A stretch of DNA of 64,000 nt, from assembly GCA_963662945.1 (NCBI GenBank), contig OY759974.1, positions 416,001-480,000 on the forward strand, read 5' to 3'. A model generated the notes under the pieces. It was not told the DNA's origin. It did not search any database and worked only from the letters and a program-made list of their open reading frames with translations. The translations under genes were made by a program, and so were the position numbers. This document shows, one piece after another, positions 34,926-55,572 of this stretch (the stretch's first letter is position 1; every line of letters starts with the position of its first letter). The stretch comes from Arcobacteraceae bacterium (GTDB taxonomy: Bacteria; Campylobacterota; Campylobacteria; Campylobacterales; Arcobacteraceae).

Positions 34926-35759
34926 TTATAAAGATTTTAAAAAACTATTTGTATCCTCTTTTACTAACTCTAAGTTATGTGTAGTTATAAACTTATCCTC
35001 TTTTTTACTATGTTCCTCTTTGTTTGATACAACTATCCCTGTATCAAGTCCTAGAGTTATCTCATTTGCTACCATTCTATAAGTATCTCGGCTGAAATCT
35101 ATCCCTAAAAACAGATATGATTTACCTTGTTTGTACCCTTTTAAAAATGGTGGTATCGCATATCCACCCATAGCTTCCGTTAACCAGTCAACAAAGTCAG
35201 CATCACTAACGATAAAATCCATATCAGGAACAGTTGAACCCATAGGTTTAAAAAGGATTGGGATAGAATCGTTTAATTCATCTTTTTCTATTTTGTTGTA
35301 TGTTTTTGTTGGTAAGTCGTATTTGTATACGATAAATCTATCATATCCACCCATAACTCTTGAAACACCAGTTACCATAAAATGCTCTACATCTTCATAT
35401 ACTTTACAACCACTATCATCAAGATTTGTATCTATCATATATTTTGGTTTAATTTCTTTTAAAAATTGGTATACATAAGGAAGGTCATACTGTTTCGAAC
35501 TGTAGATATGATTTGTCATTTGTATGATAAACTCTCTACCTTTTCGTTGCTCCAAACTCATAGCAGCTCTTGTGTACTCATACATAAGTCTTGCACTCAT
35601 AGCTCGACCATTGTTAAGTGCAAGTACCATACTATCACTATCAAATGGAAGTTGTACACCATCAGTAGATTTTACACCTTCAAATACACCCATACCTAAA
35701 AATGGAACGAGTTCACCACTTATTATTTTTTCTTTTATATTATCCATTATACTTCCCAT
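34926..35759 (-). CDS. SIR2-like domain protein
   Basis: VPFLGMGV, IDTNLD, LFKPMGS, FIVSDADF, YLFLG resemble SIR2_2 motifs; alternative start at ATG 35747. Confidence 0.7.
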   Translation of the reverse strand: MGSIMDNIKEKIISGELVPFLGMGVFEGVKSTDGVQLPFDSDSMVLALNNGRAMSARLMYEYTRAAMSLEQRKGREFIIQMTNHIYSSKQYDLPYVYQFLKEIKPKYMIDTNLDDSGCKVYEDVEHFMVTGVSRVMGGYDRFIVYKYDLPTKTYNKIEKDELNDSIPILFKPMGSTVPDMDFIVSDADFVDWLTEAMGGYAIPPFLKGYKQGKSYLFLGIDFSRDTYRMVANEITLGLDTGIVVSNKEEHSKKEDKFITTHNLELVKEDTNSFLKSL

Positions 35760-35861: not shown

Positions 35862-36401
35862 TTAGCCGTGGCAGCCTACACCTGTATATGTTACATATGC
35901 TTTATTAAGTTCTACTTGTAATCTATCTAAATCAAACTCTTTTTCTAAATTTGATGGCATATCCAAAAAGAAAACTGCTCCATCTTTTGAAATTAAAAAC
36001 AATGCTTTTGTAAGTTTATCTTCCATACTACCACTTACTATTTTTGTTCCATACATATTTCCAAATTCATCTTCACTATCAAAGACCATCTCAAACTTTT
36101 TTAATCTATTTTTAAATACAGTAGTATTTTCTAACTTTTCATTGAAAATAAAATAACATTGAATTGGAACTTGTATATTACTCATAAACTGATCTATTTT
36201 TAAAATCTCTTTACTAAAGTTATCACTTGCATCAGGAAAAGAGATAAACAAACTCATAGCTCCATCACTATGACTTCTTTTAATCTCTTTTTTTTCTCCA
36301 TTAACATCAGAAACTTCAAAGTTTTCAGCCATATACCCTATATCGATAAAATCTTCGCACAGTTCGTATTCTTCACCTTTGAATGTAACATTAGATTCCA
36401 T
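35862..36401 (-). CDS. Thiol-peroxidase/redoxin-fold protein lacking the peroxidatic Cys
   Basis: Tpx-like N-terminus (VTFKG...IGYMAENF), FGNMYG, KALFLISKDG; overlaps the nifA stop. Confidence 0.65.
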   Translation of the reverse strand: MESNVTFKGEEYELCEDFIDIGYMAENFEVSDVNGEKKEIKRSHSDGAMSLFISFPDASDNFSKEILKIDQFMSNIQVPIQCYFIFNEKLENTTVFKNRLKKFEMVFDSEDEFGNMYGTKIVSGSMEDKLTKALFLISKDGAVFFLDMPSNLEKEFDLDRLQVELNKAYVTYTGVGCHG

Positions 36402-37911
36402 ATTTTTTTACCTTATAGCCTATTTGTCGTACTGTAATTCCTAACATATCTGCTGCACGTGATTGATTATTATCACACTCTTTCAATGCTTTCATAATCG
36501 CTTCACGTTCTAGTTCATCAAGAGTTTTATTTTCCATTGGAATTGTTTTATACTCTTCAATCAGTTTTTCATTTTTCAATGCAGGAAGAAGTAAAAGCAT
36601 ATCAGCAGCACTAATGCCATCTTCATCCCCCATCAATACAATTCTTTCAATTGTATTCTCCATCTCTCTTACATTTCCAGGCCAAGGATATCCCATAAGT
36701 TTATCCATAGCTTCATCTGTGATTTTCACCACTTTTTTATGATTTTTCATACTTCTTTCAAGAAAGAAATTTACAAGAAGTTTGATATCTTCACCTCTTT
36801 TTCGTAGAGGTGGTAAATCTATTGGAATAACATTCAATCTGTAGTATAAATCCTCTCTAAACTCACCATCTTTTACCATTTGTTCAAGATTTCTATTGGT
36901 TGCTGCTACTAATCTTACATTTACTTTGATTGTTTTACTTCCACCAACTCTCTCAAACTCTCTTTCTTGTAAAACTCTTAAAAGTTTCACTTGCGCACTT
37001 GCACTAATGTCACCTATTTCATCTAAAAATAAAGTTCCTTTATCTGCTAGTTCAAATCTACCTTTTCTTGTCTCTTTTGCATCTGTAAATGCACCTTTTT
37101 CATGTCCAAAAAGTTCACTTTCTAATAAACTGTCAGTGATAGCTGCACAGTTTAACTTCACGAACGGCTCTTCAGCTCTACGACTTCTTTTGTGAATTGC
37201 TGCTGCAACTAGTTCTTTCCCAGTTCCAGTTTCTCCGCGTACAAGTACTGTCACGTCACTTTGTGCAATTCTTTCAACAACTTTGTAGACATCTTTCATC
37301 TTTTTACTCTCACCAATTATGTCACCAAAATTATGCACTTTTGAATCCCACTCCATTTTATAATACTGTTTAAGATCTTTTAATTTCTCTTTTTCATCCT
37401 CTAGAACAAAATGAGAATACATACTTTGAGCAAATAATGAACTAATGATTGACAATATTCTAACAGTATCATCAAATCCCATTTTTGTAGATTTCGTCAG
37501 ATTTGTTGCTAACACACCAATTGTTTCATGTTCTACAATCATAGGAACTGCAATATAAGAAATAGTATCACTACTTCTGTTACCTGATTTATTTAAAAAC
37601 AATATATCATTGTGCACATTCTCAATAACAACTGGCTCCATACTTTTTGCAGCTAAACCAGTAGCACCTTCACCAATTCTATATTCTGAAATGATTTTTT
37701 GATGTTTGTTAAAATTGATTGATGCGAAGATATTTAAAATATCATCTTCTCTTTTATATATAACACAATTTTCTAAATCTAGATTTTTCTTCAACACCAT
37801 AAGGCATTTTTCCAAAGATTGAACAATTTGTCCACGAGAATCAGCTATAATTGTAGCAATCTCTTGTAAAACATTAAGTTCTATTTGTATCAAACTATCT
37901 TCATTATTCAT
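36391..37911 (-). CDS. nifA: Nif-specific sigma54 activator (GAF-AAA+-HTH)
   Basis: GAF (YRIGEGATG), GETGTGKE, ESELFGHEKGAFTDA, WPGNVRE, HTH RQIGYKVKKY; nif context. Confidence 0.88.
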   Translation of the reverse strand: MNNEDSLIQIELNVLQEIATIIADSRGQIVQSLEKCLMVLKKNLDLENCVIYKREDDILNIFASINFNKHQKIISEYRIGEGATGLAAKSMEPVVIENVHNDILFLNKSGNRSSDTISYIAVPMIVEHETIGVLATNLTKSTKMGFDDTVRILSIISSLFAQSMYSHFVLEDEKEKLKDLKQYYKMEWDSKVHNFGDIIGESKKMKDVYKVVERIAQSDVTVLVRGETGTGKELVAAAIHKRSRRAEEPFVKLNCAAITDSLLESELFGHEKGAFTDAKETRKGRFELADKGTLFLDEIGDISASAQVKLLRVLQEREFERVGGSKTIKVNVRLVAATNRNLEQMVKDGEFREDLYYRLNVIPIDLPPLRKRGEDIKLLVNFFLERSMKNHKKVVKITDEAMDKLMGYPWPGNVREMENTIERIVLMGDEDGISAADMLLLLPALKNEKLIEEYKTIPMENKTLDELEREAIMKALKECDNNQSRAADMLGITVRQIGYKVKKYGI

Positions 37912-37995
37912 TATTCATCCAATCTATATAATATATTTTGAATATTATATCATTGTATATAAATAATTTATACATGCTATATGTATAAATTATAA

Positions 37996-38205
37996 TCAAT
38001 CTGCAAGTTTTTTACAAACTTCCTCTTTTGGCAAATTTTTAGGACCAGGTTGTATCCACCAAGTTTCACCATTACTTAATTCAACTTCTCCACCCCAATT
38101 ATCATCATCGCTAAACTCTATTGTTTCAATAGTTTCTTCCATATCTTTTTTAGCTATATAAAAATAAATCTCTCCATCTGCTTCTCTTAACATTACTTTT
38201 GCCAT
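37996..38205 (-). CDS. nifT: NifT/FixU protein
   Basis: KVMLR...YIAKKDMEE...WGG..ELSNG pattern. Confidence 0.85.
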   Translation of the reverse strand: MAKVMLREADGEIYFYIAKKDMEETIETIEFSDDDNWGGEVELSNGETWWIQPGPKNLPKEEVCKKLAD

Positions 38206-38233
38206 AAATTATCCTTTGTATTTGTAAACTATA

Positions 38234-38249
38234 TGCAATATTTGTTCCT
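38234..38249 (-). promoter_or_regulatory. Sigma54 promoter of nifT
   Basis: AGGAACAAATATTGCA (GG-N10-GC). Confidence 0.8.
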
Positions 38250-39897
38250 AATTATTATTAGCAATCATTCTTCGCAAATATCCAAGTAAATTATTCTTTT
38301 GAAGCCATACTTTATAAAAACCTCTTTTAAGTTCATTAACTAAAATGCTATGTTTATATTCATCATTGATATCAGGATAATCATCTCTATGATGTGCTCC
38401 TCGACTCTCTTTTCTTTTTCTTGCACTTAGTACAACTGTTTCTGCAACTTCCAATGCATTTTGTAGTTCTAAAATAGAGATAAGTTCCACATTGTTACTT
38501 CTCCCTTTATCTATACAATGTAAAGTTCCAGCTTCTCTTCGTAAATATTTCAAATAATCCAATGCTTTAAAAAGTGTTTTTTGAGTTCTGCTTATTCCTG
38601 CTAACTCAAACATAGTTTTACCAACAGATATTCTCATAGAGTTAAAGTTCTTTGTTGTATCTTGATCAAAGATATAATCAACTTTTTGTTGGTCTCTTAC
38701 TACAATATTGTAATCTATTGGTAAAAAATCTTTTTTTATACTGTATTTTAAAGCATTTTTTCCTGCTAATTCCCCAAAAACAGCACCCTCTAAAAGTGAG
38801 TTTCCGCCCAGTCTATTTGCTCCATGTACTCCATTTACTGCACATTCACCACAAACAAATAAACCTTTTATAGTAGTTTTTGTCATATTTGCTTCTATAC
38901 CACCCATAGTATAATGTGCAACAGGTTTTACAGGCAATAATTCTGTTCTAACATCAACACCAGCTTGCATCAAAGCTGCTTTTTGAAGACTTGGCAATTT
39001 TGTTTCTATATGCTCTGCACTTAAATGTCTTAAATCTATAAAAACTGATTTTCCCTCATTAATTTCTTTTGAGATGGCACGACTTACAACATCTCTGGTG
39101 TCAAGTTCATTTACAAATCTTTCCCCCTCACTATTAACAAGATAACCACCCTCACCACGTGCTGCTTCACTTACAAGATAACTTGTTTTTATAAAACCTG
39201 TTGGATGGAATTGAACAAATTCCATATCTTTTAAAGCCAATCCAGCTCGCAAAGCAACTGAAAGCATGTCTCCTGTGTAGTCTTGGGCATTTGTACTAAA
39301 ACCTCTATAAAGTCCTGCATAACCGCCACCTGCAAGTACCACAGACTTTGCAGGATAAACCATAACTGAAGAATCAAACCGTCTTAATACAACAATTCCA
39401 CTTACTTTATTGTGCATTTTAGTAATATTCATTACAAAATTATTTACTAAAAACTCTACACCCATAATTTTGGCTTTTTTTATAAGAGCTTGTGTTATTG
39501 CGGAACCTGTTTTATCACCCACATAACAAGTTCTCTTACTACTTCCACCACCAAAACTTCGCTGTGCAATTTTTCCTTCTTCATCTCTATCAAACTCTAC
39601 ACCATAATCTGAAAGTTTTGAAATAATTAAAGGGGCTTGTTCACACATATATGTTACTGCTTTTTTATCAGCCAAACCAGAAGAACCTTTTAAAGTATCA
39701 TCTATATGTTTTGCAATACCTTCTTTATCACTCTTATCTAAGACACCGTTTATTCCACCACTGGCCAAACTACTATTAGATTTAAAAAGATTTCCTTTTG
39801 TTACAATAGCAACTTTTACAGTAGGATCACTTTTTGCTTCAATTGCAGCCATTAAACCAGCAATACCTGCGCCTACAACAATAACATCATATATCAT
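38248..39897 (-). CDS. FAD-dependent oxidoreductase of the SdhA/FrdA/NadB family
   Basis: GAGIAG, EFVQFHPT, SEAARGEGG, HYTMGG, HGANRLGGNSL, ESRGAH. Confidence 0.85.
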   Translation of the reverse strand: MIYDVIVVGAGIAGLMAAIEAKSDPTVKVAIVTKGNLFKSNSSLASGGINGVLDKSDKEGIAKHIDDTLKGSSGLADKKAVTYMCEQAPLIISKLSDYGVEFDRDEEGKIAQRSFGGGSSKRTCYVGDKTGSAITQALIKKAKIMGVEFLVNNFVMNITKMHNKVSGIVVLRRFDSSVMVYPAKSVVLAGGGYAGLYRGFSTNAQDYTGDMLSVALRAGLALKDMEFVQFHPTGFIKTSYLVSEAARGEGGYLVNSEGERFVNELDTRDVVSRAISKEINEGKSVFIDLRHLSAEHIETKLPSLQKAALMQAGVDVRTELLPVKPVAHYTMGGIEANMTKTTIKGLFVCGECAVNGVHGANRLGGNSLLEGAVFGELAGKNALKYSIKKDFLPIDYNIVVRDQQKVDYIFDQDTTKNFNSMRISVGKTMFELAGISRTQKTLFKALDYLKYLRREAGTLHCIDKGRSNNVELISILELQNALEVAETVVLSARKRKESRGAHHRDDYPDINDEYKHSILVNELKRGFYKVWLQKNNLLGYLRRMIANNN

Positions 39898-39900
39898 ACA

Positions 39901-41013
39901 TTATAACCTGTAAAGTAAATCATATTTACTTTTTGGTACTGCTTTTACTTTTGAAATCTCACAATTGTGTTTAATATTTACAGGCACCCTACTTCCAAAA
40001 AGTCCACTTACTATTCCAGGAGTTGAACGAACAAATTGCAATGCTAATTGAATATCACTTTTTAAAGTCATACTATTATCAAGAATAACACCTGTTTCTG
40101 CTGTGAAAGATTTTTTGAAAAGATTCATTTGCAATAAACTTGAACTACTTATAACCCCTAAACCTAATCTATATGCCGCTTGTAAAATCGTACATTTCTC
40201 ACCATTTACTTTTTGTGTTGGTGTTGTGTATGCTGTTGTTTTCCCCATATTAAAAGGTGTTTGAATATATTTAAATCGATGATTTTCACCACCAGCTTTT
40301 TTTGCACATTCAACTAATTTTTCTATCTCTATAGTTTCGTTAATTTCTGACATAAAACCATTCCAAACAGCAACTCCATAACATTTAAAAAGTCCTTCAT
40401 CTGCTAATTTTTCAAATCTTTTAAATATTTTTTCTATTTGTTTATAAAAGTTTTTTTCTCCAAGTTTTAAAATCTGCATCTCTGGATTATGAAGGTAATA
40501 AATATCTAAACTTTCAACTCCAAGATTTTCTAAACTTCTTCTACAAGACCATTCTAAATAATCAGGTGTCATACAATGTTGGTCTAACTCTATATCGTCT
40601 TTTGTTGCAAGTTTTTTATCTATGATGTTTTCTTCTATCCATGTATAAGGATTTTCTGGAAAAGGATAATCTAGTTGGATAAATCCACCTTTAGAACAAA
40701 TTATAAGCTCTTCCCTTTTTACTGCATCTTCAGCATATAATTCTACTAAAGCTTCCCCTATCTCTCTTTCACTCTGTCCATATCTATAGTTACTCGCAGT
40801 ATCTATTAGATTTATACCATTTTTTACAGCTTCTTTAACAGCTGCTATATAATGAAATACATAATTTTCTTCTTTATATGGTTCTTTATTAAATGTACCT
40901 AAACCTAATTTTGAAAATATTAATCCGTTACTTTGTGTAAAAAAGTCTTTATAATGAGAAAACTTCTTGGCAAACTCTAATGTATCTGTTGGTGTTGCTA
41001 CTTTCAGACTCAT
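39901..41013 (-). CDS. Aldo/keto reductase family protein
   Basis: LGLGT, IDTASNY, SKGG, SLENLG...DIYYLHNPE. Confidence 0.85.
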   Translation of the reverse strand: MSLKVATPTDTLEFAKKFSHYKDFFTQSNGLIFSKLGLGTFNKEPYKEENYVFHYIAAVKEAVKNGINLIDTASNYRYGQSEREIGEALVELYAEDAVKREELIICSKGGFIQLDYPFPENPYTWIEENIIDKKLATKDDIELDQHCMTPDYLEWSCRRSLENLGVESLDIYYLHNPEMQILKLGEKNFYKQIEKIFKRFEKLADEGLFKCYGVAVWNGFMSEINETIEIEKLVECAKKAGGENHRFKYIQTPFNMGKTTAYTTPTQKVNGEKCTILQAAYRLGLGVISSSSLLQMNLFKKSFTAETGVILDNSMTLKSDIQLALQFVRSTPGIVSGLFGSRVPVNIKHNCEISKVKAVPKSKYDLLYRL

Positions 41014-41108
41014 TATTTCTTTGCCATTTTTGCGTAAGTTTTATTTGTATAAATTACTATTGCCACTGTATAAGATATAAGTATAAGTGGTAGTATATAA
41101 GTTTCCAT
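41013..41108 (-). CDS. Small 31-aa single-TM peptide (not in the ORF track)
   Basis: METYILPLILISYTVAIVIYTNKTYAKMAKK; RBS AAGGA; TAATG overlap with the AKR start. Confidence 0.7.
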   Translation of the reverse strand: METYILPLILISYTVAIVIYTNKTYAKMAKK

Positions 41109-41148
41109 AATATATTTCCTTTAGGATTTAATCAATTGCTTACAATTA

Positions 41149-41164
41149 TGCAAGTACCATTCCA
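41149..41164 (-). promoter_or_regulatory. Sigma54 promoter of the peptide-AKR-flavoprotein unit
   Basis: TGGAATGGTACTTGCA (GG-N10-GC). Confidence 0.8.
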
Positions 41165-41169
41165 TAAAT

Positions 41170-41970
41170 TTAATACGATTTTAACTTCGCTATCTCCTCA
41201 TTACTAAACCCTGCTTTTATCCTAGCTTCTACATTTATATGCTTATTTTTTTTAAAAGAGTTTGGATAAATTTCATTGACAATTTTGAAATAGTCACAAC
41301 TAAAATTTTCTTTTTTGTCACAACCATATTTATACCAAAAATCACCTTTTTTTACATGACTAACCTCTTCTTCAAGAATAACTTCTAAAGCTGTTACTAT
41401 CGCTTGGGTATTTGGAAAATTTTTTAATTTGTTGATAATCATCATATTTGCATCTAAACCATTTGCTTCCATATATCTAGGAATAAGTGCCATTCGAGGA
41501 ATAAGCTCTAATGTTTTCATGGAAGCATCAAATAATCCTTGATGAACATCATAATCTCCATATTTTTTTCCATATTGTTTAAGTAGTTTTTCAATCATTA
41601 TAAAATGTCGTATCTCATCATCTGCTACTTCCATCCAGTCTTTATAAAACTCATAAGGCATCTTTTGAAATCTATAACACGCATCAAGTGCTAAATCAAT
41701 TGCACTATACTCAATATGAGCTACTGCATGTAAAAGATTTATAATCCCCTCTTTTGTATCAAGTCTTTCCCTTTTTGGTACTGCACTTGTGTGGACAATA
41801 TTACAAATATTTTTATAAGAGGGTTCACTAAAAACTTCAATTGTTTCAAGAGGTGTAAAATCAACTTTTTGATTCAAAAATTCTTCGTATAATAACTGAA
41901 ACTTATAAAACTTTTCTATAGGATTTGTCGATAACAAGGTATCTTTTACATTTAAAAAATAATTATTCAT
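41170..41970 (-). CDS. Ferritin-like DUF455 protein
   Basis: HAVAHIEYSAIDLA, DEIRHF, EANGLD, EEVSHV. Confidence 0.88.
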   Translation of the reverse strand: MNNYFLNVKDTLLSTNPIEKFYKFQLLYEEFLNQKVDFTPLETIEVFSEPSYKNICNIVHTSAVPKRERLDTKEGIINLLHAVAHIEYSAIDLALDACYRFQKMPYEFYKDWMEVADDEIRHFIMIEKLLKQYGKKYGDYDVHQGLFDASMKTLELIPRMALIPRYMEANGLDANMMIINKLKNFPNTQAIVTALEVILEEEVSHVKKGDFWYKYGCDKKENFSCDYFKIVNEIYPNSFKKNKHINVEARIKAGFSNEEIAKLKSY

Positions 41971-42052
41971 AATGATATTATATAATAATTTTATTAATTC
42001 TTTCAGTCATTTTATGCTATTGTATGCAAAATAAAAAATAAGGATTATCATT

Positions 42053-42415
42053 ATGTATTTAGTGGTAGATGATTCACGTATGGCACGTAAAATGGCTGTG
42101 AAAAACTTAACATTAGTTGTGGGAGAAACAGCCAAGATAATTGAAGCACAAGATGGTCAAGAGGCTGTAGAGCTTTATAAGACTTATAAACCGACAATTT
42201 GTTTTATGGATTTAACTATGCCAATTATGGATGGTTTTGAAGCTATTAAAGAGATATGTAAGTTTGATCCAGATGCAAAAATCATTGTAATCAGTGCAGA
42301 TATACAAGAGCTTTCTATGAAGAAAGCAAAAGATAACGGTGCCATTGGATTTATAAAAAAACCTATTAGTCAAGATAATTTAAAAAGTATGTTAACAACA
42401 TTGGGATTGGTATAA
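42053..42415 (+). CDS. Single-domain CheY-like response regulator
   Basis: VVDDS, MDLTMP, KKP. Confidence 0.9.
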   Translation: MYLVVDDSRMARKMAVKNLTLVVGETAKIIEAQDGQEAVELYKTYKPTICFMDLTMPIMDGFEAIKEICKFDPDAKIIVISADIQELSMKKAKDNGAIGFIKKPISQDNLKSMLTTLGLV

Positions 42416-43033
42416 ATGGAAAATATAATTGAATTAAATGAAGATGAAAAAGATTGTTTACAAGAATTAATGAATATCTCTTATGGTGCAGCAACAGCTG
42501 CAATTTCCGAAATAATAGGAAAATTTGCCACATTAAGTATCCCAAATATTGATACTATCTCATCAAAAGATTTAGTTGCACATCTTAATCAAAAACTATT
42601 AAGTAAAAATAAATATTATGTTGCAAATCAACTGATTAATGGCTATCTTGCTGGTGAAAATATTTTTATTATTGATGAAGTTTCGAGCATTAATTTAGCA
42701 CGTGAATTTGATTTAGATGAAGATGAAATAAATGAAAATGAGATCAAAGATATAATCCTTGAAATTACAAATATTCTTTCTTCAGCAACTTCAGGAAAAC
42801 TGGCAAGCTTAGTAGATACAAGTATCTCTTTTAGTGCCCCACACATCACTAAAATAAACTCAATTGATGAATTTGACAAAAGATTTGAGGGGGAATATAG
42901 TCATGTGATTATTATCTCTACTGAATTAAATTTTAAAGAACAAAATATAAAAGGTGAATTGATGATACTTACAAAAAGAGAATCATCAATTTTTCTAAAA
43001 AAAGCACTTGATAATGCTTTAGATAATCTCTAA
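42416..43033 (+). CDS. CheC-like phosphatase
   Basis: Two E-x-x-N motifs (QELMNI, LEITNI). Confidence 0.8.
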   Translation: MENIIELNEDEKDCLQELMNISYGAATAAISEIIGKFATLSIPNIDTISSKDLVAHLNQKLLSKNKYYVANQLINGYLAGENIFIIDEVSSINLAREFDLDEDEINENEIKDIILEITNILSSATSGKLASLVDTSISFSAPHITKINSIDEFDKRFEGEYSHVIIISTELNFKEQNIKGELMILTKRESSIFLKKALDNALDNL

Positions 43034-43047
43034 ATTAGGAATTTATA

Positions 43048-43977
43048 ATGCAAATAGATAACAATATAATTTTTAATACTGTTAATAATGGAATTATTAT
43101 TCTTGATGAAGATTTAAATGTAAAAGCTTGGAATAAGTGGCTTGAAATTTTTACTAAAGTGAAAGAAAAAGATATTATTGGAAAAAGTCTTTGTCAATAT
43201 TTTCCTTATATCAATGAAAAAAAACTCAGAAGAAAAGCAAAAACTGTTTTAGTAACAAAAAATCCTTCTTTTTTAAGTCTTAATACAAATAGATATCTTA
43301 TAAATATCCCTGTTAGTAATGTTACAAATACTGTTTTTGAATCTATGCAACAAGATATTACAATACTTCCTTATGATTTAGAGAAAAAATACATTTGTAT
43401 CTATATTTATGACAATACTTTAATGTGTGAGATTAACCAAAAACTTGAACGGGCAAATGAAGAACTTATTGATATGTCTCATAGAGACCCTTTAACACAG
43501 ATTTTTAATAGAAGATATTTTTCAGAACAATCAAAAAAAATCAAATCATTCTCACAAAGAAACAATAATATCCCATTTAGTATTATAACTTTAGATATTG
43601 ATAAATTCAAAAAAATCAATGATACCTATGGACACTTAGTTGGAGATGAAGTTATCATAAAAGTTGCCCACATTATTGAGGAAGAGGTAAGAACAAGTGA
43701 TATTGTTGCAAGATTTGGTGGGGAAGAATTTGTTATGTTACTCCAAGACTGTGACCTTGACAATGCTTATAAAGTAGCTGAAAAAGTACGACAAGATATA
43801 GAAAAAGCATCTATACCAGTACATATTGATACCGACGTAAAATTTACCGTTAGTATTGGTGTTGCTCAATTTAGTGAAGCAGATAATAATAATATAGAAC
43901 TCACTCTTTCACGAGCTGATGAAGCACTTTATAAAGCAAAAAATATTGGAAGAAATAAAACTGTAGTATCATACTAA
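43048..43977 (+). CDS. PAS-GGDEF diguanylate cyclase
   Basis: PAS-like N-terminus; DIDKFKKINDTYGH; RFGGEEF with I-site RTSD. Confidence 0.9.
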   Translation: MQIDNNIIFNTVNNGIIILDEDLNVKAWNKWLEIFTKVKEKDIIGKSLCQYFPYINEKKLRRKAKTVLVTKNPSFLSLNTNRYLINIPVSNVTNTVFESMQQDITILPYDLEKKYICIYIYDNTLMCEINQKLERANEELIDMSHRDPLTQIFNRRYFSEQSKKIKSFSQRNNNIPFSIITLDIDKFKKINDTYGHLVGDEVIIKVAHIIEEEVRTSDIVARFGGEEFVMLLQDCDLDNAYKVAEKVRQDIEKASIPVHIDTDVKFTVSIGVAQFSEADNNNIELTLSRADEALYKAKNIGRNKTVVSY

Positions 43978-44817
43978 CAGTTTCATTCTAGTTCCAATAT
44001 TTGCCATCCCACACGTATATACTTTACTTGTAACAATGCCATCAATTCCAGTGGCGGCAAACTCTTTTGCATTATTAATATCAATACCTCCAGAAGCTAA
44101 AACTTTAACAGATTGAAATTTTTTATTTTTATACTCAATAATTTTTTCTAAGGTTTCAACAGTTACTTTGTCCATTTGTAATACATCTGCACCATGCATC
44201 ATAACTCTTATTGCATCTTCTAAATTATCTGATTCTACTACTATCTTTTTTTCTGGTACTTTTCGTTTTAAATTATAAATATTTTCATAAAATTCTTGAT
44301 TAGAGTTATAAACTATTCTATGATTCTCAAAAAACACTATTGTTTCACCAAGATTTAATCTATGTGGCATTCCCCCGCCAGTAAGAATTGATTTTATACA
44401 AAACTTTTTTGCAAAAGGAAAAGTTTTTCGTGTAGTTAATAACTCACAATGTTGGTTTGTTTTTTTCATCTCTTTTTTCATATTATAAGTATATGTTGTC
44501 ATTTTACAACTATACTCAAGTAAAACTTGTGCTGGTCTCCATGCTTTATGTACATTGTTATAATCCCCACTAAACTTCAATAAAGTCTCACCTTCTTTTG
44601 CTTTTTGTTTAGAAGAGATATAAAAATCTACATCACAACCCAATAATTTTACTATTCTACAAGCTTCTTCCATACAAGATACAATAACATTTTCTCTCGT
44701 AACGATTTCCAAACTTACATATTTATCTTGAATATCTTGTAAATGTGTGGTTAAATCTAGATATGGAATATCTTCATTTATATATTGTTCTAATTCATAA
44801 TCACTAAAATGTACCAA
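43969..44817 (-). CDS. modD: ModD protein (quinolinate phosphoribosyltransferase-like)
   Basis: EDIPYLDLTT, TTRKTFP, GGGMPHRLNL, SGGI; at the end of the mod cluster. Confidence 0.85.
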   Translation of the reverse strand: MVHFSDYELEQYINEDIPYLDLTTHLQDIQDKYVSLEIVTRENVIVSCMEEACRIVKLLGCDVDFYISSKQKAKEGETLLKFSGDYNNVHKAWRPAQVLLEYSCKMTTYTYNMKKEMKKTNQHCELLTTRKTFPFAKKFCIKSILTGGGMPHRLNLGETIVFFENHRIVYNSNQEFYENIYNLKRKVPEKKIVVESDNLEDAIRVMMHGADVLQMDKVTVETLEKIIEYKNKKFQSVKVLASGGIDINNAKEFAATGIDGIVTSKVYTCGMANIGTRMKLLV

Positions 44818-44846
44818 AAAATTTTCCTTTTTATTTTCATTGTTGC

Positions 44847-44878
44847 TTGGTTTATTTCATTAAAATGAAATAAACCAA
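44847..44878. other. Intergenic stem-loop between the molbindin gene and modD
   Basis: TTGGTTTATTTCATT-aa-AATGAAATAAACCAA, perfect 15-bp stem. Confidence 0.7.
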
Positions 44879-44884
44879 AATGTC

Positions 44885-45298
44885 TTAAGCAATTAATATA
44901 ACACTTGAAGCTTTAAAGATTGCATAAACCGTATCACCTTTTGCAATTAATAAATCTTCAACTGACTCATTTGTCACTATAGCACATATAATACTATCTC
45001 CTACTGCCAGCTTCACTTCACTATTAACTGCACCTTTAATTACTTCTGTAACTACACCTTTGAGATTATTTCTTGCCGTTGCTTTTAATACAGATTTACT
45101 TAAAATAATTGAAGACGCTTTTACAATAGTACCCACAGTATCCCCAATACTCAAACCTAAAGCTTCTTTACCTTCATTTGTCACTGTAGCACAAATATGT
45201 ACCGCATCTGAAACTTCAACTTTAACTTCAGTCATAACTGCACCATTGATAAACTCAACAATTTTACCACTTAATTGATTTCTAGCACTTGTTTTCAT
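44885..45298 (-). CDS. Di-TOBE molybdate-binding protein (molbindin/ModG-like)
   Basis: SARNQL...KASS repeated as TARNNL...KASS. Confidence 0.9.
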   Translation of the reverse strand: MKTSARNQLSGKIVEFINGAVMTEVKVEVSDAVHICATVTNEGKEALGLSIGDTVGTIVKASSIILSKSVLKATARNNLKGVVTEVIKGAVNSEVKLAVGDSIICAIVTNESVEDLLIAKGDTVYAIFKASSVILIA

Positions 45299-45363
45299 TG
45301 AAAACTCCTTATATTAAAATTAAATCCTTTAGCATTTCCGCTAAAAGACTTAAATTTAATATA

Positions 45364-46041
45364 CTAAATAACTTTCTCTTTTTTTTGTAAAATACTTAAA
45401 CTTATAAAAAATATTAAAGATGTCACAACTAAAATACCACTTAAAATCATTGCCAAGTCATACTCTCCATCAAAAACAGCATTATAAATTGCCAAAGATA
45501 CCGTATCTGTTTTTCCTACAATATTTCCACCTAACATTAAAGTAATTCCAACTTCACCTAATGCCCTAGCAGTTGCAATCAATAAAGCAACTACAAGAGA
45601 ATTTTTTATTGTTGGCAAAACAATGAAAAGAAATGTCTTTACTTCACTTTTTCCACTGATAAACGAAGCTTCTTTTATCTGCTTTGGAAACTGTTCTATA
45701 CTTGATTGCAATGGTTTTACCATCAGTGGTAATCCAGCAACAAATCCAGCTATGACAATCCCTGTGAAACTAAATATTAGACTAATGTCAAACTTTTGGA
45801 GAAATGCCCCTAATGCTCCATCTCTTCCCAAAAGCAAAAGGAGAAAAAAGCCCACGGCAATCGGTGGAAAAATTAGAGGCATAGTAACTATGGTATCTAG
45901 TAACCATTTAAACTTTAAATTCTCTTTTGAGAGTAAATAAGCCAAAGGAACACCCAATACTATAAACAAAATAGCACTTACACTAATAGTTTTAACACTT
46001 AATAAAAGCGGTTGTGTTATGAGTGCAAGTTCTATATTCAT
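45364..46041 (-). CDS. modB: Molybdate ABC transporter permease (second copy)
   Basis: PLIFPPIAVG, ARALGEVG, GGNI. Confidence 0.85.
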   Translation of the reverse strand: MNIELALITQPLLLSVKTISVSAILFIVLGVPLAYLLSKENLKFKWLLDTIVTMPLIFPPIAVGFFLLLLLGRDGALGAFLQKFDISLIFSFTGIVIAGFVAGLPLMVKPLQSSIEQFPKQIKEASFISGKSEVKTFLFIVLPTIKNSLVVALLIATARALGEVGITLMLGGNIVGKTDTVSLAIYNAVFDGEYDLAMILSGILVVTSLIFFISLSILQKKEKVI

Positions 46042-46748
46042 TACAAACCATACTTTCTAAATATATCTTTTGAGGTTTGTGTTGCTAAAAATTCTACAAA
46101 TTTTTCACACTCTTTTGTATTACAGCTAGCCAGTTTTCCAGTAACTATCTCAATAGGCGAATAGTATTGTTGCGGTACTTCTATATATCCACCTATTTTA
46201 GCTTTGTTTGCCAAAGTAGCAGTAAGATTTACTATACCTGCATCTACTTCATTTGTAATCACGTAAGTCATAGATTGAGGTACTGTTGCAACTACATACA
46301 ATTTCTCTTTTACACTATCATACAATTTTGCATTTTTTAGAAATTGCTCACCAGCTATACCATAAATAGCTTTTTTTGGCTGAGGCATAGATATTTTTCC
46401 TATTGTATCTTTTGTTAAATCTCCAATTGAAGTTATGCTTTTTCCTTTTGGGTATGCAACTACAACTTTTCCTGTACCTAAATATAAATACTCTTTAAAA
46501 TCTAACTTACTTTTTTTTGATAAAAAGTTTTTATCCCCAACAATTACAGCAATATCAGTTTCTTTTGCTTGAGTAGTTATTTGTTTCATATTTCCAAAAA
46601 AAGCATCAATCTTGTCACCATTTTTTTCATACTCTTTTATCACATCCATCAAAGGTTTTTTATACCCAGCACCAGCTGCTACTTTTAAATTTGCTCCGTT
46701 TACAACTACACCTAAAGCTATCACACTTAATACTATTTTTTTTAACAT
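46041..46748 (-). CDS. modA: Molybdate ABC transporter substrate-binding protein (second, divergent copy)
   Basis: Signal peptide, AAGAGY, AIYG, TVPQ; ModE box upstream. Confidence 0.8.
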   Translation of the reverse strand: MLKKIVLSVIALGVVVNGANLKVAAGAGYKKPLMDVIKEYEKNGDKIDAFFGNMKQITTQAKETDIAVIVGDKNFLSKKSKLDFKEYLYLGTGKVVVAYPKGKSITSIGDLTKDTIGKISMPQPKKAIYGIAGEQFLKNAKLYDSVKEKLYVVATVPQSMTYVITNEVDAGIVNLTATLANKAKIGGYIEVPQQYYSPIEIVTGKLASCNTKECEKFVEFLATQTSKDIFRKYGL

Positions 46749-46752
46749 TTTC

Positions 46753-46780
46753 TTCCTTATATAATAAACTATACAACGAT
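46753..46780. promoter_or_regulatory. ModE box overlapping the modA2 RBS
   Basis: TTCCTTATATA-N6-TATACAACGAT versus consensus ATCGNTATATA-N6-TATATANCGAT. Confidence 0.75.
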
Positions 46781-46792
46781 AGTCAAATTTTT

Positions 46793-47647
46793 TTAAATTT
46801 TTTTTATAAGCGGTGTAAATGCTTTAGTACTTACAATAACACTTTGCCCCATCTTTAAAGTTGTTACTTCTTCATTGCTTACAACAACTTCAACTAATTG
46901 TTGACCAATAGATACAATAGCAATATTAATTACATCTACTTTTATAATATCTAATAACTCTCCTTCAAAAGAAAATTTTTGACTCCCACTAGTTTTAAGT
47001 AAAACATCTTTTGGTAATCCATCATTAATAATTTCACCATAATTTAAAACCACAACTCTAGAAGCTAATCTATAAATTTCACTTGGATCATGACTTACCA
47101 TAATAGTAGTAGTATTAAATTCTTTATGAAGTGTTAATATCTCATTTTGTAATTTTGTTCTCATAGTAGGATCAAGAGCAGAAAGTGGTTCATCCATTAG
47201 AAGTAACTTAGGTCTATTCATCATTGCTCGACATAAGCTTACACGCTGTTTTTGACCACCACTTAATGTGTTTGGCATTCTATGTTGTAATTCTATAAGT
47301 TCTGTCATATTCAAAAGTTTCTGTGCTAATTCTTTATCTTTTTGGACAAAAAGTAAATTATCTATGACACTCATATTTGGAAATAAAGCATAATCCTGAA
47401 ATACAAACCCTATTTTTCTTTTTTGAGCTGCTATTGTGTATGATTCATTTTGCCAAATTTCATCGCCAACTTGAATGATTCCATTTGATTTTTCAAGCCC
47501 TGCCAAGATTCGTAAAAGTGTTGTTTTCCCACTTCCACTTTGTCCAGCAAGAGCTACAAAATCACCTTTTTTTATATCTAAATTGACATTTAAATCCATT
47601 TGTCCATTTGCACCATGTAATTTTTTATTAATATTTATATGAATCAT
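46793..47647 (-). CDS. modC: Molybdate ABC transporter ATPase
   Basis: GQSGSGKTT, VFQDYALFP, LSGGQKQR, MDEP, C-terminal TOBE. Confidence 0.9.
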   Translation of the reverse strand: MIHININKKLHGANGQMDLNVNLDIKKGDFVALAGQSGSGKTTLLRILAGLEKSNGIIQVGDEIWQNESYTIAAQKRKIGFVFQDYALFPNMSVIDNLLFVQKDKELAQKLLNMTELIELQHRMPNTLSGGQKQRVSLCRAMMNRPKLLLMDEPLSALDPTMRTKLQNEILTLHKEFNTTTIMVSHDPSEIYRLASRVVVLNYGEIINDGLPKDVLLKTSGSQKFSFEGELLDIIKVDVINIAIVSIGQQLVEVVVSNEEVTTLKMGQSVIVSTKAFTPLIKKI

Positions 47648-47671
47648 TATTATTTCCAATCTCTTATAATT

Positions 47672-48214
47672 TTATGCAAATTCAACATTGCAAGCAAATA
47701 CTCTTTTATAAAGTTTTAATTTTTTTGTAAGTGGTAACCATTTTATAAGTAGTGTTGCTAAGGCTTCCCATAAAGAAACCCAACCTGCAACCAACATCCC
47801 TTCTGATACTATTTTGATGAAAAAATTCTCACTACCTCCTGTAAGCAGTGCACATGCAGTAAAAAATAATCCTATTACTATGAAGATAAAACTATTCTTT
47901 ATCTGCTCTCTCATCTTTTTTTTCTCTAAATCTTGTAAATATGAGAAATAATGTTTAATACTATTTCTTACTTTTTCTTGAAGTCCCTTATCTACTTTTT
48001 CTTCAATATAAAATTTAATATAAAAAGATTCTTTTCCTATTTCATTGACACTTTCTATTATATATTCTACAAGTTCTTGATCCAAATCTTTTTTTGAAAA
48101 AGATGATTTTTTATCAAACTCATTATATAAATCTTCAACTTTTACCGCTGATACTTTAATGATAACCTCTCCATTATCACTTATATCATATCGTTCTAGA
48201 ATCTTTTTTTTCAT
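47672..48214 (-). CDS. Hypothetical protein with two C-terminal TM helices
   Basis: 180-aa ORF between modB and modC; GWVSLWE. Confidence 0.7.
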   Translation of the reverse strand: MKKKILERYDISDNGEVIIKVSAVKVEDLYNEFDKKSSFSKKDLDQELVEYIIESVNEIGKESFYIKFYIEEKVDKGLQEKVRNSIKHYFSYLQDLEKKKMREQIKNSFIFIVIGLFFTACALLTGGSENFFIKIVSEGMLVAGWVSLWEALATLLIKWLPLTKKLKLYKRVFACNVEFA

Positions 48215-48217
48215 AAC

Positions 48218-48910
48218 TTATATCCCAGAGTTTTTATTTACTTTGCCATTAAATATATAAACACTTAACAACACTAAGAAACTAATCACTACCATAATTG
48301 CACTATAAATATGTGCCATTTTATAATCCATAATCTCAACAAATTCATAAATAGCAACTGATGCTACTTTTGTTTCATTAGGAATACTTCCACCAACCAT
48401 TAATACAACTCCAAACTCTCCAACTGTATGAGCAAAAGTAACAATAATTGCTGTCATTAAAGCTGGTTTTATATTTGGTATTGCAACTTTAATTATAGTT
48501 TCTACTTTTCCTTTTCCACTTATATAACTAGCTTCTAGCATATTTTTATTGATAGACTCAAAACCACTTTGAAGGGGTTGAACCATAAATGGTAAACTAT
48601 AAAAACAACTAGCAACAATAAGACCTGTAAAGTTAAAAACTAATTTCACTCCAAATACATCTTCAAAAAACATCCCTATAGGAGAGTTATGGGATAATGC
48701 AACGAGAATATAAAATCCCAATACAGAAGGAGGTAATACAATTGGCAAAGCTGTTAATGCTTCTAAAAATGGTTTTGCTTTTGAAGTAGTTTGAGATAAA
48801 TACCAACTCAGAGGAATACTAATAAAAAATAATATTGCAGTAGTAATCCCAGCCAATTTAAAAGATAATAAAAAAGGCTCAAATTCTATAGTTTGTAATA
48901 ATTCAATCAT
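48218..48910 (-). CDS. modB: Molybdate ABC transporter permease
   Basis: [29 protein letters not shown]. Confidence 0.92.
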
Positions 48911-49304
48911 TTATAATTTCCCCAATTGAGAGTTCACTTGCTTTTATCAATGCAGTAATTTTATCACCTACTTTCAAATCCATTTTTAATGAAGAGTTTA
49001 AAGTAATGATTGACTCCAAAGTAGTATCAACAAATGAAAGTTTCACACTACTTAAAAGTTGCCCATTTTCTATTGAAACAATAGTTGTATCAAGTTTATT
49101 AGAATAGCTCACTTCTCCACTAAAATTTTTTGCAATTGCTATGTGAGATGGTTTAATAAGTAATTTTACAACCGTACCAACTTGTATTTCATCACTCAAA
49201 CCTAAACTCATCATTGATAAAGTTTGACCTTTTAGGTCAAACTTCACAATATGCAAATTATCACAATTATTAATTTGAGATACAGTTGCAATTAAACTAC
49301 TCAT
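48903..49304 (-). CDS. TOBE-domain protein
   Basis: ESIIT...[15 protein letters not shown]. Confidence 0.85.
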
Positions 49305-50056
49305 GGTACTAAATATCCATATTTTTTGAATATTGCTTTTGCTTTATCCCCTAAGATAAAATCATAAAAAGCTTTTGCTTCACTATTATCTTGAGCATTT
49401 TTAAGTATTACAATACCTTGATTAATTGGTGTATATAATTTTGGATCAACATCTGACCAATTAATACCCTCTTTATATTGAGCCATTTTAGGACTATATA
49501 ATGAAGACTTTGCAATAAATCCAATATCAGCAGCTGTTACAGCATATGATACTGTTTGAGAAATTGACTCTGCATATACAAATTTTCCTTCTACTTTATC
49601 ATAAACATTTGCATTCTTCATAGCTTCTACAGCTGCTTTTCCATAAGGTGCAGTTTTTGGATTTGCAACAGCAATTTTTGCTATATCTGCACTTTCAACT
49701 AAATGAATACCTTTTGAAAAATCTTGTTTTTTACTACTTAAATATGCAAGACTACCTTGAGCATAAACAATTGGCTTCGTTATAGCAATTCCATCACTAT
49801 ATAAAGCTTTTGGGTATTTCATATTTGCAGCCATAAATAATTGATATGGTGCACCATTTTTTATCTGAGCAGTTAACTTTCCACTACTTCCAAGTGTAAC
49901 TTGTACTTGTGTATCTGGATTTGTTTTATTAAACTCAGCTTTTAATTCATCAATAGCATAACTAACATTTGCAGCAACTGCAATATTTAATGTTCCTGCA
50001 TATAAAGAACCAACAAATAATAAACTTCCTAAAACTATTTTCTTTAACATTTTCAT
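49301..50056 (-). CDS. modA: Molybdate ABC transporter substrate-binding protein
   Basis: AVAAN, GSSGKL, NGAP, ANPKTAPYG. Confidence 0.92.
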   Translation of the reverse strand: MKMLKKIVLGSLLFVGSLYAGTLNIAVAANVSYAIDELKAEFNKTNPDTQVQVTLGSSGKLTAQIKNGAPYQLFMAANMKYPKALYSDGIAITKPIVYAQGSLAYLSSKKQDFSKGIHLVESADIAKIAVANPKTAPYGKAAVEAMKNANVYDKVEGKFVYAESISQTVSYAVTAADIGFIAKSSLYSPKMAQYKEGINWSDVDPKLYTPINQGIVILKNAQDNSEAKAFYDFILGDKAKAIFKKYGYLVP

Positions 50057-50060
50057 CCCT

Positions 50061-50843
50061 TTATTTTCCTATCATCACATCAGATGATTTTATAATAGCA
50101 CTTACACTATCACCAATTTGTAAATCTAAATTTCCTGTAGCATTTTTGGTAATAACAGATGCAATTTTATCCCCATTACCTATATCTACTAAAACTTCAC
50201 TGTTAATCTCACCTAAGTTTATATCAGTAATCTTACCTTGAAATTTATTTCTTGCACTTATATTGAGACTTAAATCAGTTGTTAAAAGAACTGAACTTGA
50301 TTTGAAAATAGCTACAACTTCATCTTTAAGCTGTAAATTTAAATTTTCTATTGCACCATTTGTAATAACACTTACTAATGTATATCCACTTTTTAATTTT
50401 ACATATACAGAAGAATTTACTTTTCCTTGCTCAATGTGTTCGACTGTTCCTTGTATCTGATTTCTTGCACTTATTTGCATTGAAAACCTTTCTAGAGATT
50501 TAAGGGCTCCTGTGTTAAAATCTGTCATCTTTGTCAATTGTGATAAAAACTTTTCATGTTCTTTTTGAAGAGTCGAATATGTTTTAATTAAGTTTTTACC
50601 ATAAGGTGTCACTTTTGCACCACCACCTCCAACACCACCTGTAGATTTCTCTACAACGGTTGTTGGACAAAGGTTGTTTATGGCATCGATAGCATCCCAT
50701 GCAGCTTTATAGCTCATGGGTACCTTTTTTGCAGCTTTACTAATAGAACCAGCCTCTTCTATATAACTTATGAGTTTGATTCTTTTTTCTAGTAGTAATG
50801 GTGTATCGCTATTAAATATTGTTAAAGATGATGAAAATTCCAC
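50061..50843 (-). CDS. modE: Molybdate-responsive regulator (wHTH plus two TOBE domains)
   Basis: GSISKAAK..MSYKAAW, GGVGGGGA, SARN twice. Confidence 0.92.
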   Translation of the reverse strand: MEFSSSLTIFNSDTPLLLEKRIKLISYIEEAGSISKAAKKVPMSYKAAWDAIDAINNLCPTTVVEKSTGGVGGGGAKVTPYGKNLIKTYSTLQKEHEKFLSQLTKMTDFNTGALKSLERFSMQISARNQIQGTVEHIEQGKVNSSVYVKLKSGYTLVSVITNGAIENLNLQLKDEVVAIFKSSSVLLTTDLSLNISARNKFQGKITDINLGEINSEVLVDIGNGDKIASVITKNATGNLDLQIGDSVSAIIKSSDVMIGK

Positions 50844-54101: not shown

Positions 54102-54461
54102 TTACGCTACTTTAACTCTGTAAAGATTCATATCATCTAATTTTTTACATAAATCTTTTGTAGCTTCTCCATCAACTGATTTAGAGATTTCTGAAATTTG
54201 GTATTTATTTGTGTAATAAATCATTTTGAAATCATCTTTTGCAGCAACTTCAGAATTTGTGTAGTAATCTACAAACGCTGTGTGAGCAAATGTTCCTGCT
54301 GGAACTTCTATAGTTTCTAATTGAACACCTTCTCTTGTTTCACTTGTTAATGTAACAGTTTTACCTGCTGCATCAGTACCTTCTTCTACTTTAGCTATAA
54401 CTTTATCAAAAGCTACATCGTTCCCTTCACTTGCTGGAAAATGATAACCACATACAAACAT
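54102..54461 (-). CDS. Uncharacterised protein encoded between nifH and nifD
   Basis: 119-aa ORF, strong RBS AGGAG, codon usage resembling nifHDK. Confidence 0.85.
   Translation of the reverse strand: MFVCGYHFPASEGNDVAFDKVIAKVEEGTDAAGKTVTLTSETREGVQLETIEVPAGTFAHTAFVDYYTNSEVAAKDDFKMIYYTNKYQISEISKSVDGEATKDLCKKLDDMNLYRVKVA

Positions 54462-54564: not shown

Positions 54565-55572
<1,008 letters not shown>

Follow-up and report, generated by a model that had tools for sequence, protein, structure and literature searches.

The stretch of DNA considered here (64,000 nucleotides (nt) of contig OY759974.1 from an Arcobacteraceae bacterium, assembly GCA_963662945.1, positions 416,001 to 480,000; hereafter the window) contains a compact operon for a putative small membrane peptide, an aldo-keto reductase (AKR) and an SdhA/FrdA-type flavoprotein, all encoded on the minus strand. 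A sigma-54-type promoter element, TGGAATGGTACTTGCA, with GG-N10-GC spacing is located at positions 41149–41164. It is followed by a Shine-Dalgarno (SD) sequence, AAGGA (41117–41121), 8 nt ahead of the ATG at 41108 that opens the gene of the peptide (41013–41108). This gene specifies 31 amino acids (aa), METYILPLILISYTVAIVIYTNKTYAKMAKK, and belongs to an unannotated family; AAGGA- or GGAG-type sites also precede the peptide ATG in the related loci that were inspected. The peptide TAA and the ATG of the AKR gene share one base (ATAATG), and no strong SD sequence is found immediately 5' of this ATG. The AKR gene (39901–41013) codes for a 370-aa protein of an uncharacterised subfamily of similar length. 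After a gap of 3 nt follows the gene of a soluble 549-aa flavoprotein (38248–39897), which carries Asn41 at the position where flavin adenine dinucleotide (FAD) is linked to a His in related enzymes. An earlier reading of the same DNA, in the following termed the original prediction, had described this order of promoter, ribosome-binding site, peptide, stop/start overlap, AKR, 3-nt gap and flavoprotein, and every element is in place.

The operon lies within a low-GC nitrogen-fixation island with nifH, nifD, nifK, nifS, nifU and nifQ, which also holds modE, two mod transporters, modD, glnA, amt, glnB, clpP and clpX. For comparison, one genome per species was pattern-scanned for relatives of the AKR. 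This yielded 131 relatives, and the best 80 of the 131 loci were kept; those among them that carry a taxonomic name are all from Campylobacterota. The closest relatives of AKR and flavoprotein are 90–94% identical and originate from uncultured Arcobacteraceae. The gene of the flavoprotein follows that of the AKR in 80/80 loci, and the two are separated by at most 3 nt or overlap in 71 of the 76 full-length cases, so that the AKR is presumably made in fixed proportion with the flavoprotein. Further downstream the gene order is conserved as well: nifT (73/80 loci) is followed by nifA (68/80), two open reading frames (ORFs) termed ORF179 (63/80) and ORF277 (52/80), and clpX (47/80). Five of the seven loci that lack nifT end less than 2.7 kb past the AKR start. 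The remaining two (L080 and L034) are close relatives from Sulfurovum, and L080, which is annotated, has nifB divergently upstream. The upstream flank is variable and consists of nifHDK, mod genes or, in related loci, a cheY-cheC-GGDEF insert. In the window, nifT is the next gene on the strand of the flavoprotein (37996–38205; TIGR02934, 66.2 bits versus a cut-off of 41), and nifA, the gene of the sigma-54 activator, lies behind it (36391–37911; TIGR01817, 511 bits, slightly below the cut-off of 528.85). The association with nif is thus very strong by genomic context, and this part of the proposal of a nif-regulated module stands. Its other part, nif co-regulation, is suggested by the promoter, the gene order and the linkage to nifT.

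The flavoprotein consists of two Pfam domains, FAD_binding_2 (317.3 bits) and Succ_DH_flav_C (84.8 bits), and falls below every curated NCBIfam cut-off. It scores 524.7 bits versus 567.3 for SdhA/FrdA (TIGR01812), 442 versus 718 for TfrA (NF004900) and 414.5 versus 452.75 for NadB (TIGR00551). Among relatives of solved structure SdhA ranks first (337 bits), followed by FrdA (291) and NadB (234). A predicted model with a pLDDT (predicted local distance difference test) of 77.5 superposes best on Escherichia coli FrdA, with a template modelling (TM) score of 0.87, and less well on NadB structures (0.71–0.75). Look-ups in the ESM Atlas returned only generic AKR and SDH/FRD clusters.

A residue-by-residue alignment was made with E. 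coli NadB, SdhA and FrdA and 76 full-length orthologues. The segment KSNSSLASGG places Asn41 where E. coli SdhA and FrdA carry the FAD-linked His, and this exchange, which the original prediction had noticed in the single copy, is present in 76/76 orthologues. FAD is therefore probably bound non-covalently. The residues N41, F115, H231, E244, R247, R268, H328, R362 and G365 are likewise invariant in all 76. Six of them, H231, E244, R247, R268, H328 and R362, match His233, Glu246, Arg249, Arg288, His356 and Arg391 of FrdA (gene numbering), while at the position of FrdA Thr245 there are 51 orthologues with Ser and 25 with Thr. Two further positions separate the family from L-aspartate oxidase: NadB Glu121 corresponds to Phe115 and NadB Ser389 to Gly365 in 76/76 orthologues, both as in E. 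coli SdhA, and the Glu121 position is non-acidic (Phe) in E. coli FrdA, too. A study on L-aspartate oxidase describes Glu121 as the base that deprotonates the substrate amine, at a position that is neutral in SDH/FRD enzymes, and counts Ser389 among the active-site residues (PMC10249383). By residues and scores, the flavoprotein is FrdA-like and not a NadB. Its N-terminus opens directly with the dinucleotide-binding fold (MIYDVIVVG...), which argues for a cytoplasmic location. With E. coli FrdB/C/D and SdhC/D as queries, tblastn returned no match at E≤1e-3, neither across the window nor in any of the 80 loci, in agreement with the earlier observation that no Fe-S or anchor subunit gene is adjacent.

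The AKR matches Pfam PF00248 with 98.8 bits (gathering score 24), residues 36–218 being aligned to positions 2–142 of 291, i.e. to the first half of the profile. The catalytic tetrad Asp71, Tyr76, Lys108 and His175 is invariant in 27/27 AKR sequences and aligns with the tetrad of pdb entry 1qwk. All matches listed by Foldseek for the model of the AKR are AKRs (probability 1.00, TMq 0.46–0.53, 17–23% identity). Cys106, Cys147, Cys157 and Cys274 are conserved. We take the C-terminal region to resemble the cofactor-binding segment of other AKRs, and the enzyme would use NAD(P)H. At E≤1e-30 the subfamily comprises 295 representative clusters, mostly of ~370 aa and 30–50% identical, from varied sources including a plant. 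It appears to be a broad, uncharacterised subfamily of which only the Campylobacterota branch is tied to nif. Some of its distant members (~33–37% identity) are fused to other domains. A search for fusions among longer proteins returned a single match, P0244 (843 aa), with an N-terminus resembling aKG-HExxH peptide hydroxylases ahead of a subfamily AKR. A region like that of the aKG-HExxH-type peptide beta-hydroxylases is present in P0244 and also in P0327, a lasso-peptide epimerase MslH-like region in P0310, and an SDR/epimerase-like domain (SDR, short-chain dehydrogenase/reductase) in P0320, P0330 and P0336. These fusions hint that parts of the AKR subfamily may act in natural-product or peptide tailoring.

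In the window the loose promoter pattern TGG-N8-TTGCW is matched 12 times versus 3.78 expected, a number attained in 0 of 100 shuffles. Since the pattern recurs so often, the motif by itself is weak evidence, and it is the comparative data that make the promoter call strong. With the motif GG[ACT][AT][CT][AG]-N4-[ATC]TG[CT][AT], sought up to 300 nt upstream of the AKR across the loci, a match was found in 74 of 78 sources. As controls, two in-gene stretches gave 0/78 and 3/78 and shuffled upstream sequence a mean of 1.0. The consensus of the AKR promoters, GGAACAC-N4-TTGCAT, is of the same class as the nifH promoters in the window and eight loci; the nifH promoter of the window is TGGAACACTATGTGCA at 55523–55538 on the minus strand. 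Hence, the sigma-54-type promoter put forward for this operon is supported by TGGAATGGTACTTGCA itself and by the recurrence of its class. Downstream, 65 of 74 sources have nifT ~10–40 nt behind the flavoprotein gene and without a separate promoter motif. Such a motif is present in just nine of the 74, five times at position −43. These five include a close relative (L001) and the window, where the motif, GGAACAAATATTGCA (38234–38248, minus strand), overlaps the stop codon of the flavoprotein gene 43 nt upstream of nifT. Terminator-like sites were absent from the minus strand between 36200 and 42100. Consequently, the transcription unit is best described as peptide-AKR-flavoprotein-nifT. Rfam searches of the window and five loci at gathering score, and of 37800–42100 at E≤1, returned only a tRNA elsewhere and thus no known riboswitch or leader at the module.

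A leader of another kind is conserved in the Halarcobacter/Arcobacter branch (loci L025, L028, L030, L044, L049, L051, L073–L075, L077 and L078) and is not present in the window. It follows the AKR-proximal sigma-54 motif, ~110–155 nt before the AKR start, and is composed of the box CCTTTTGTA, a hairpin AAGAGTA...TACTCTT and a T-run, which gives it a terminator-like appearance. The outer stem of the hairpin is invariant in sequence, with compensatory change in just 3 of 10 pairs. This leader, for which Rfam has no match, may serve in attenuation or as a site of protein binding.

In the peptide, a core free of charged residues is followed by a tail rich in Lys. For a profile search, a fixed rule was used to pick ORFs of 27–36 aa next to the AKR start, which gave seeds in 29 loci, and the resulting profile was run against all 32,636 stop-to-stop pieces of 15–150 aa on both strands of all loci. 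At E<1e-3 there were 43 matches, 14 of them from loci without a seed ORF. All are located on the strand of the AKR, with ends no farther than 159 nt upstream and 8 nt downstream of its start. Of the 81 sources, 43 contain the peptide and one offers no sequence ahead of the AKR; the other 37, each with 200 nt or more upstream, lack it. This confirms the predicted small gene in front of the AKR as real and conserved. An alignment of 33 copies shows Tyr13 without exception and Tyr20 in at least 90%; as a rule, ME is followed by a hydrophobic span and a basic tail of the YTNK type. The ratio of non-synonymous to synonymous substitutions (dN/dS) is 0–0.2 for close pairs (0.12 for the window and L008). 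Over 602 unsaturated pairs the median is 0.45, with some pairs above 1, but for a 31-codon AT-rich ORF this ratio is noisy and informative for close pairs only, distant pairs being saturated or biased. Peptide and AKR are directly adjacent in 30 loci, with the peptide stop within 12 nt of the AKR start. In 11 others a second sigma-54 motif and a leader of ~100 nt are inserted between the two genes, which are then 64–159 nt apart, and in eight of these 11 the first sigma-54 motif stands upstream of the peptide. On the AKR tree, presence and absence of the peptide require at least 12 changes, from which it follows that it is no obligatory anchor or substrate of the enzymes. The window copy matched no family in Pfam or NCBIfam, among the 33 copies no family was matched by more than one member (best E 0.02), and the best match in a profile search of the PDB had an E of 1.2. 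From pattern and distribution, the peptide is a genuine, sigma-54-linked but dispensable small protein with a predicted single membrane span, and it is old in the module and often lost. A reading in which it is the substrate of the enzymes, as for ribosomally synthesised and post-translationally modified peptides, was rejected, because 37 sources lack the peptide and the identity of the fused AKRs mentioned above is only ~33–37%.

From the anatomy, conservation, promoter class, nif linkage and active-site content, all of which are observed directly, we infer the substrate, electron donor and physiological role of the module as follows. It is probable that the operon encodes a lineage-specific cytoplasmic redox module, co-expressed with nif, which combines a quinone-independent enzyme of the fumarate-reductase type with an NAD(P)H-dependent carbonyl reductase. 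Transcription would start at the nifH-like sigma-54 promoter and read on into nifT in most lineages. The flavoprotein would most likely act as a reductase of fumarate, or of a C4-dicarboxylate closely resembling it, that needs neither quinone nor an Fe-S subunit nor a membrane anchor. The AKR would contribute an NAD(P)H-linked carbonyl reduction within the same process, and the module as a whole would act as a redox or metabolic helper of diazotrophy. A fumarate-reductase-type activity is favored by the complete fumarate/succinate site together with the lack of NadB residues. As to the direction of catalysis, fumarate reduction appears the more plausible one. In this family, loss of the covalent FAD link lowers the potential of the flavin, which favors fumarate reduction over succinate oxidation.

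Several points weigh against this interpretation. The main gap is the electron donor of the flavoprotein, and we know of no route by which an AKR could hand electrons to it. Since the AKR subfamily is widespread outside nif islands, the AKR alone says little about diazotrophy. Its model is of moderate quality (pLDDT 65.7), with residues 1–53 and 291–370 poorly predicted. Among longer proteins no fusion of AKR and flavoprotein was found, although this is a weak test. All loci were gathered via the AKR, and the share of Campylobacterota nif islands without the module is therefore not derivable from them. Dependence on sigma-54 and NifA is suggested by motif and position only. A NifA site, TGT-N10-ACA, is missing within ~600 nt upstream in the window and is rare in the other loci. 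In the window this pattern has 31 matches versus 24.5 expected, none of them close to the promoter of the module. Within 400 nt of the nifH promoters it is found upstream in two of nine cases and downstream in two more. As it is equally rare before nifH, its absence at the module promoter says nothing either way.

A more specific version would join both proteins in a two-enzyme NAD(P)H:fumarate (or NAD(P)H:O2) oxidoreductase specific to diazotrophy. Here, the AKR would move a hydride from NAD(P)H onto a keto-dicarboxylate, e.g. by turning oxaloacetate into malate, and the flavoprotein with its non-covalent FAD would oxidise this carrier again, with fumarate or O2 receiving the electrons. We regard this version as rather doubtful. 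If true, the pair would shield the nitrogenase of microaerophilic Campylobacterota or keep it in balance, serving as a soluble redox valve or as a scavenger of O2. In a still bolder form it would feed or poise the low-potential electron supply to nitrogenase, with the conserved peptide tuning a membrane partner within the same regulon.

Other explanations have been considered for the enzymes. The flavoprotein could be the L-aspartate oxidase of the cell, the operon then raising NAD synthesis during nitrogen fixation, a role in NAD precursor synthesis that was also among the options of the original prediction. Some orthologues are indeed named L-aspartate oxidase in their source records, NadB has no FAD-linked His either, TIGR00551 gives a score of 414.5 bits, and an NadC-like ModD is encoded in the same island. 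This score is, however, not only below the NadB cut-off but also below those with the SdhA/FrdA models, sequence and fold are nearer to SdhA/FrdA, and the island contains no nadA. In addition, the exchange of Glu121 and Ser389 for the SdhA-type Phe and Gly in every orthologue makes the database name unlikely to be right, and we judge a function as NadB to be highly improbable. Alternatively, the pair could sense the redox or energy state and signal to NifA as a functional stand-in for NifL. The position of both genes directly upstream of nifT-nifA in nearly all loci would suit such a sensor, NifL is a flavoprotein, and some AKRs are pyridine-nucleotide sensors. On the other hand, the catalytic and substrate-binding residues of both enzymes are invariant across families, as catalysis predicts, PAS, GAF or other signalling domains are lacking, and ORF179, which overlaps the nifA stop codon, is a better-placed candidate for a partner of NifA. 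A sensor is hence an unlikely explanation.

For the peptide, two further readings have to be weighed. As a minimal substitute for SdhC/D it could tether flavoprotein and AKR to the membrane, the role of an anchor that had been suggested for it. It is hydrophobic with a basic tail and lies behind the same promoter as the enzymes, and its translational coupling to the AKR in the window, together with the short distance to the AKR start in the 30 loci mentioned above, would speak for this role. Such an anchor is very unlikely, however, since just ~10 residues of the peptide lie outside the membrane span, an Fe-S subunit that could bring electrons to a membrane site is missing, the 37 absences and at least 12 gains or losses are at odds with an obligatory subunit, and in 11 loci the second promoter motif and the leader hairpin part the peptide from the AKR as a separate unit. 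The other reading regards the ORF as a mere leader that couples translation to the AKR and whose product has no function. The one-base overlap and the lack of a strong SD sequence right before the AKR ATG in the window point in this direction, and so does the noisy dN/dS with pairs above 1. We consider it improbable nevertheless, because the invariant Tyr13, the hydrophobic span and the YTNK-type tail persist across families, the ratios of close pairs are low, and coupling is impossible in the 11 loci in which the peptide stands alone, 64–159 nt from the AKR and before the second motif. Thus, a genuine but dispensable small membrane protein remains the preferred reading.

Some features of the surroundings are worth mentioning. 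Immediately upstream of the module, a gene of the ferritin-like DUF455 family (41170–41970, minus strand) ends 6 nt ahead of the sigma-54 motif, and it occurs at this position only in the window and in L003. Between this gene and modD, the opposite strand carries an inserted trio of cheY, cheC and a GGDEF gene (42053–43977, plus strand), which is common only to the closest Arcobacteraceae loci (L001–L003, L008 and L010). The region 43969–50843 (minus strand), between nifK and the module, comprises two sets of molybdate transporter genes, two genes of Mop-domain proteins, modE and the NadC-like modD; in many related loci the promoter of the peptide or the AKR comes straight after modC or modD. 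Between nifH and nifD, an ORF of 119 aa (54102–54461, minus strand) without a match in Pfam or NCBIfam is kept in every related locus that captured this interval, with 63–85% identity. The nifH ORF as mechanically listed begins at a GTG at 55539 (minus strand) and thereby overlaps the nifH promoter TGGAACACTATGTGCA. Since homology to NifH begins at residue 25, translation probably starts at the ATG near 55470 instead.

On the other side of the module, the start of ORF179 (35862–36401, minus strand) overlaps the 3' end of nifA by 11 nt, and its product shows a weak Redoxin/thiol-peroxidase-like match. It is followed by ORF277 (34926–35759, minus strand) with a weak SIR2_2-like match. In related loci clpX comes next; in the window an ORF6N gene and a gene of a methyl-accepting chemotaxis protein lie in between. 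This nifA-ORF179-ORF277-clpX block recurs in most loci. ORF179 is a candidate NifA partner in bacteria that have no NifL.

Campylobacterota are major diazotrophs of the dark ocean and of sediments, and it is poorly understood how their nitrogenase is fed with electrons and protected. To our knowledge they have neither NifL nor the Rnf and Fix systems that have been studied in other organisms. As a component of nif islands that is preceded by a nifH-like promoter and linked to nifT-nifA in nearly all loci, the module, with its orphan flavoprotein of the fumarate-reductase type and its divergent AKR, is a strong candidate for a lineage-specific aid to nitrogen fixation that has so far been missing from the picture. 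In full-text searches, with subscription journals and supplements outside their scope, neither the AKR-flavoprotein pair nor the peptide was found described for Campylobacterota nif clusters, in line with the assumption of the original prediction that the operon is undescribed. Papers on diazotrophic Campylobacterota, in their accessible parts, list nifT and nifA and not the genes of the module (PMC12029903, PMC11474244, PMC4674564). New is the lineage-specific combination, the kinds of enzyme themselves being known. In addition, the recurring database name L-aspartate oxidase can be corrected, and a family of unannotated small membrane proteins would be added to the nif regulon. Cultured carriers of the operon are Sulfurospirillum arcachonense DSM 9755, Sulfurimonas sp. 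CS5 and Arcobacter iocasae.

A comparison with known systems places each part of the module. Its promoter resembles nifH-type sigma-54 promoters in the GG-N10-GC spacing and shares their TTGCA −12 box, but a canonical upstream NifA site was not found near it. With the COG0667-type AKRs (YdjG, YghZ/AKR14A1 and AKR11B) the AKR has PF00248, the Asp-Tyr-Lys-His tetrad and matches to the TIM-barrel fold in common. It differs by its low identity to solved AKRs (17–23%), by ~20 extra residues at the N-terminus and an insert between Lys108 and His175, and no NCBIfam model comes near its cut-off.

For the flavoprotein three systems have to be compared. Like NadB (E. coli, pdb entries 1chu and 1knp), it is soluble, has no partner subunit and no FAD-linked His, and is of similar size with ~35% identity; in contrast to NadB, it has Phe for Glu121 and Gly for Ser389, and its sequence and fold scores with NadB are lower than those with FrdA/SdhA. 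TfrA and the soluble fumarate reductases (5glg, 'Fumarate reductase 2', and flavocytochrome c3, 1d4c/1qjd) all reduce fumarate independently of quinone. The match to the TfrA profile extends from one end to the other (residues 2–528 on positions 7–542 of 546, 442 bits), but the score is far below 718, the solved soluble enzymes are weak matches (104–145 bits), and the flavoprotein is devoid of TfrB, heme and an extra donor domain. From FrdA/SdhA (E. coli, pdb entries 6awf, 1kf6 and 1nek) it is set apart by Asn in place of the FAD-linked His, missing FrdB/SdhB and anchor genes, a shorter chain (549 aa), a score below the TIGR01812 cut-off, the pairing with an AKR and the location in a nif island. 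Nevertheless, it shares with these enzymes both Pfam domains, alignment scores of 291–337 bits, TM-scores of 0.86–0.87 and all residues for dicarboxylate binding and catalysis.

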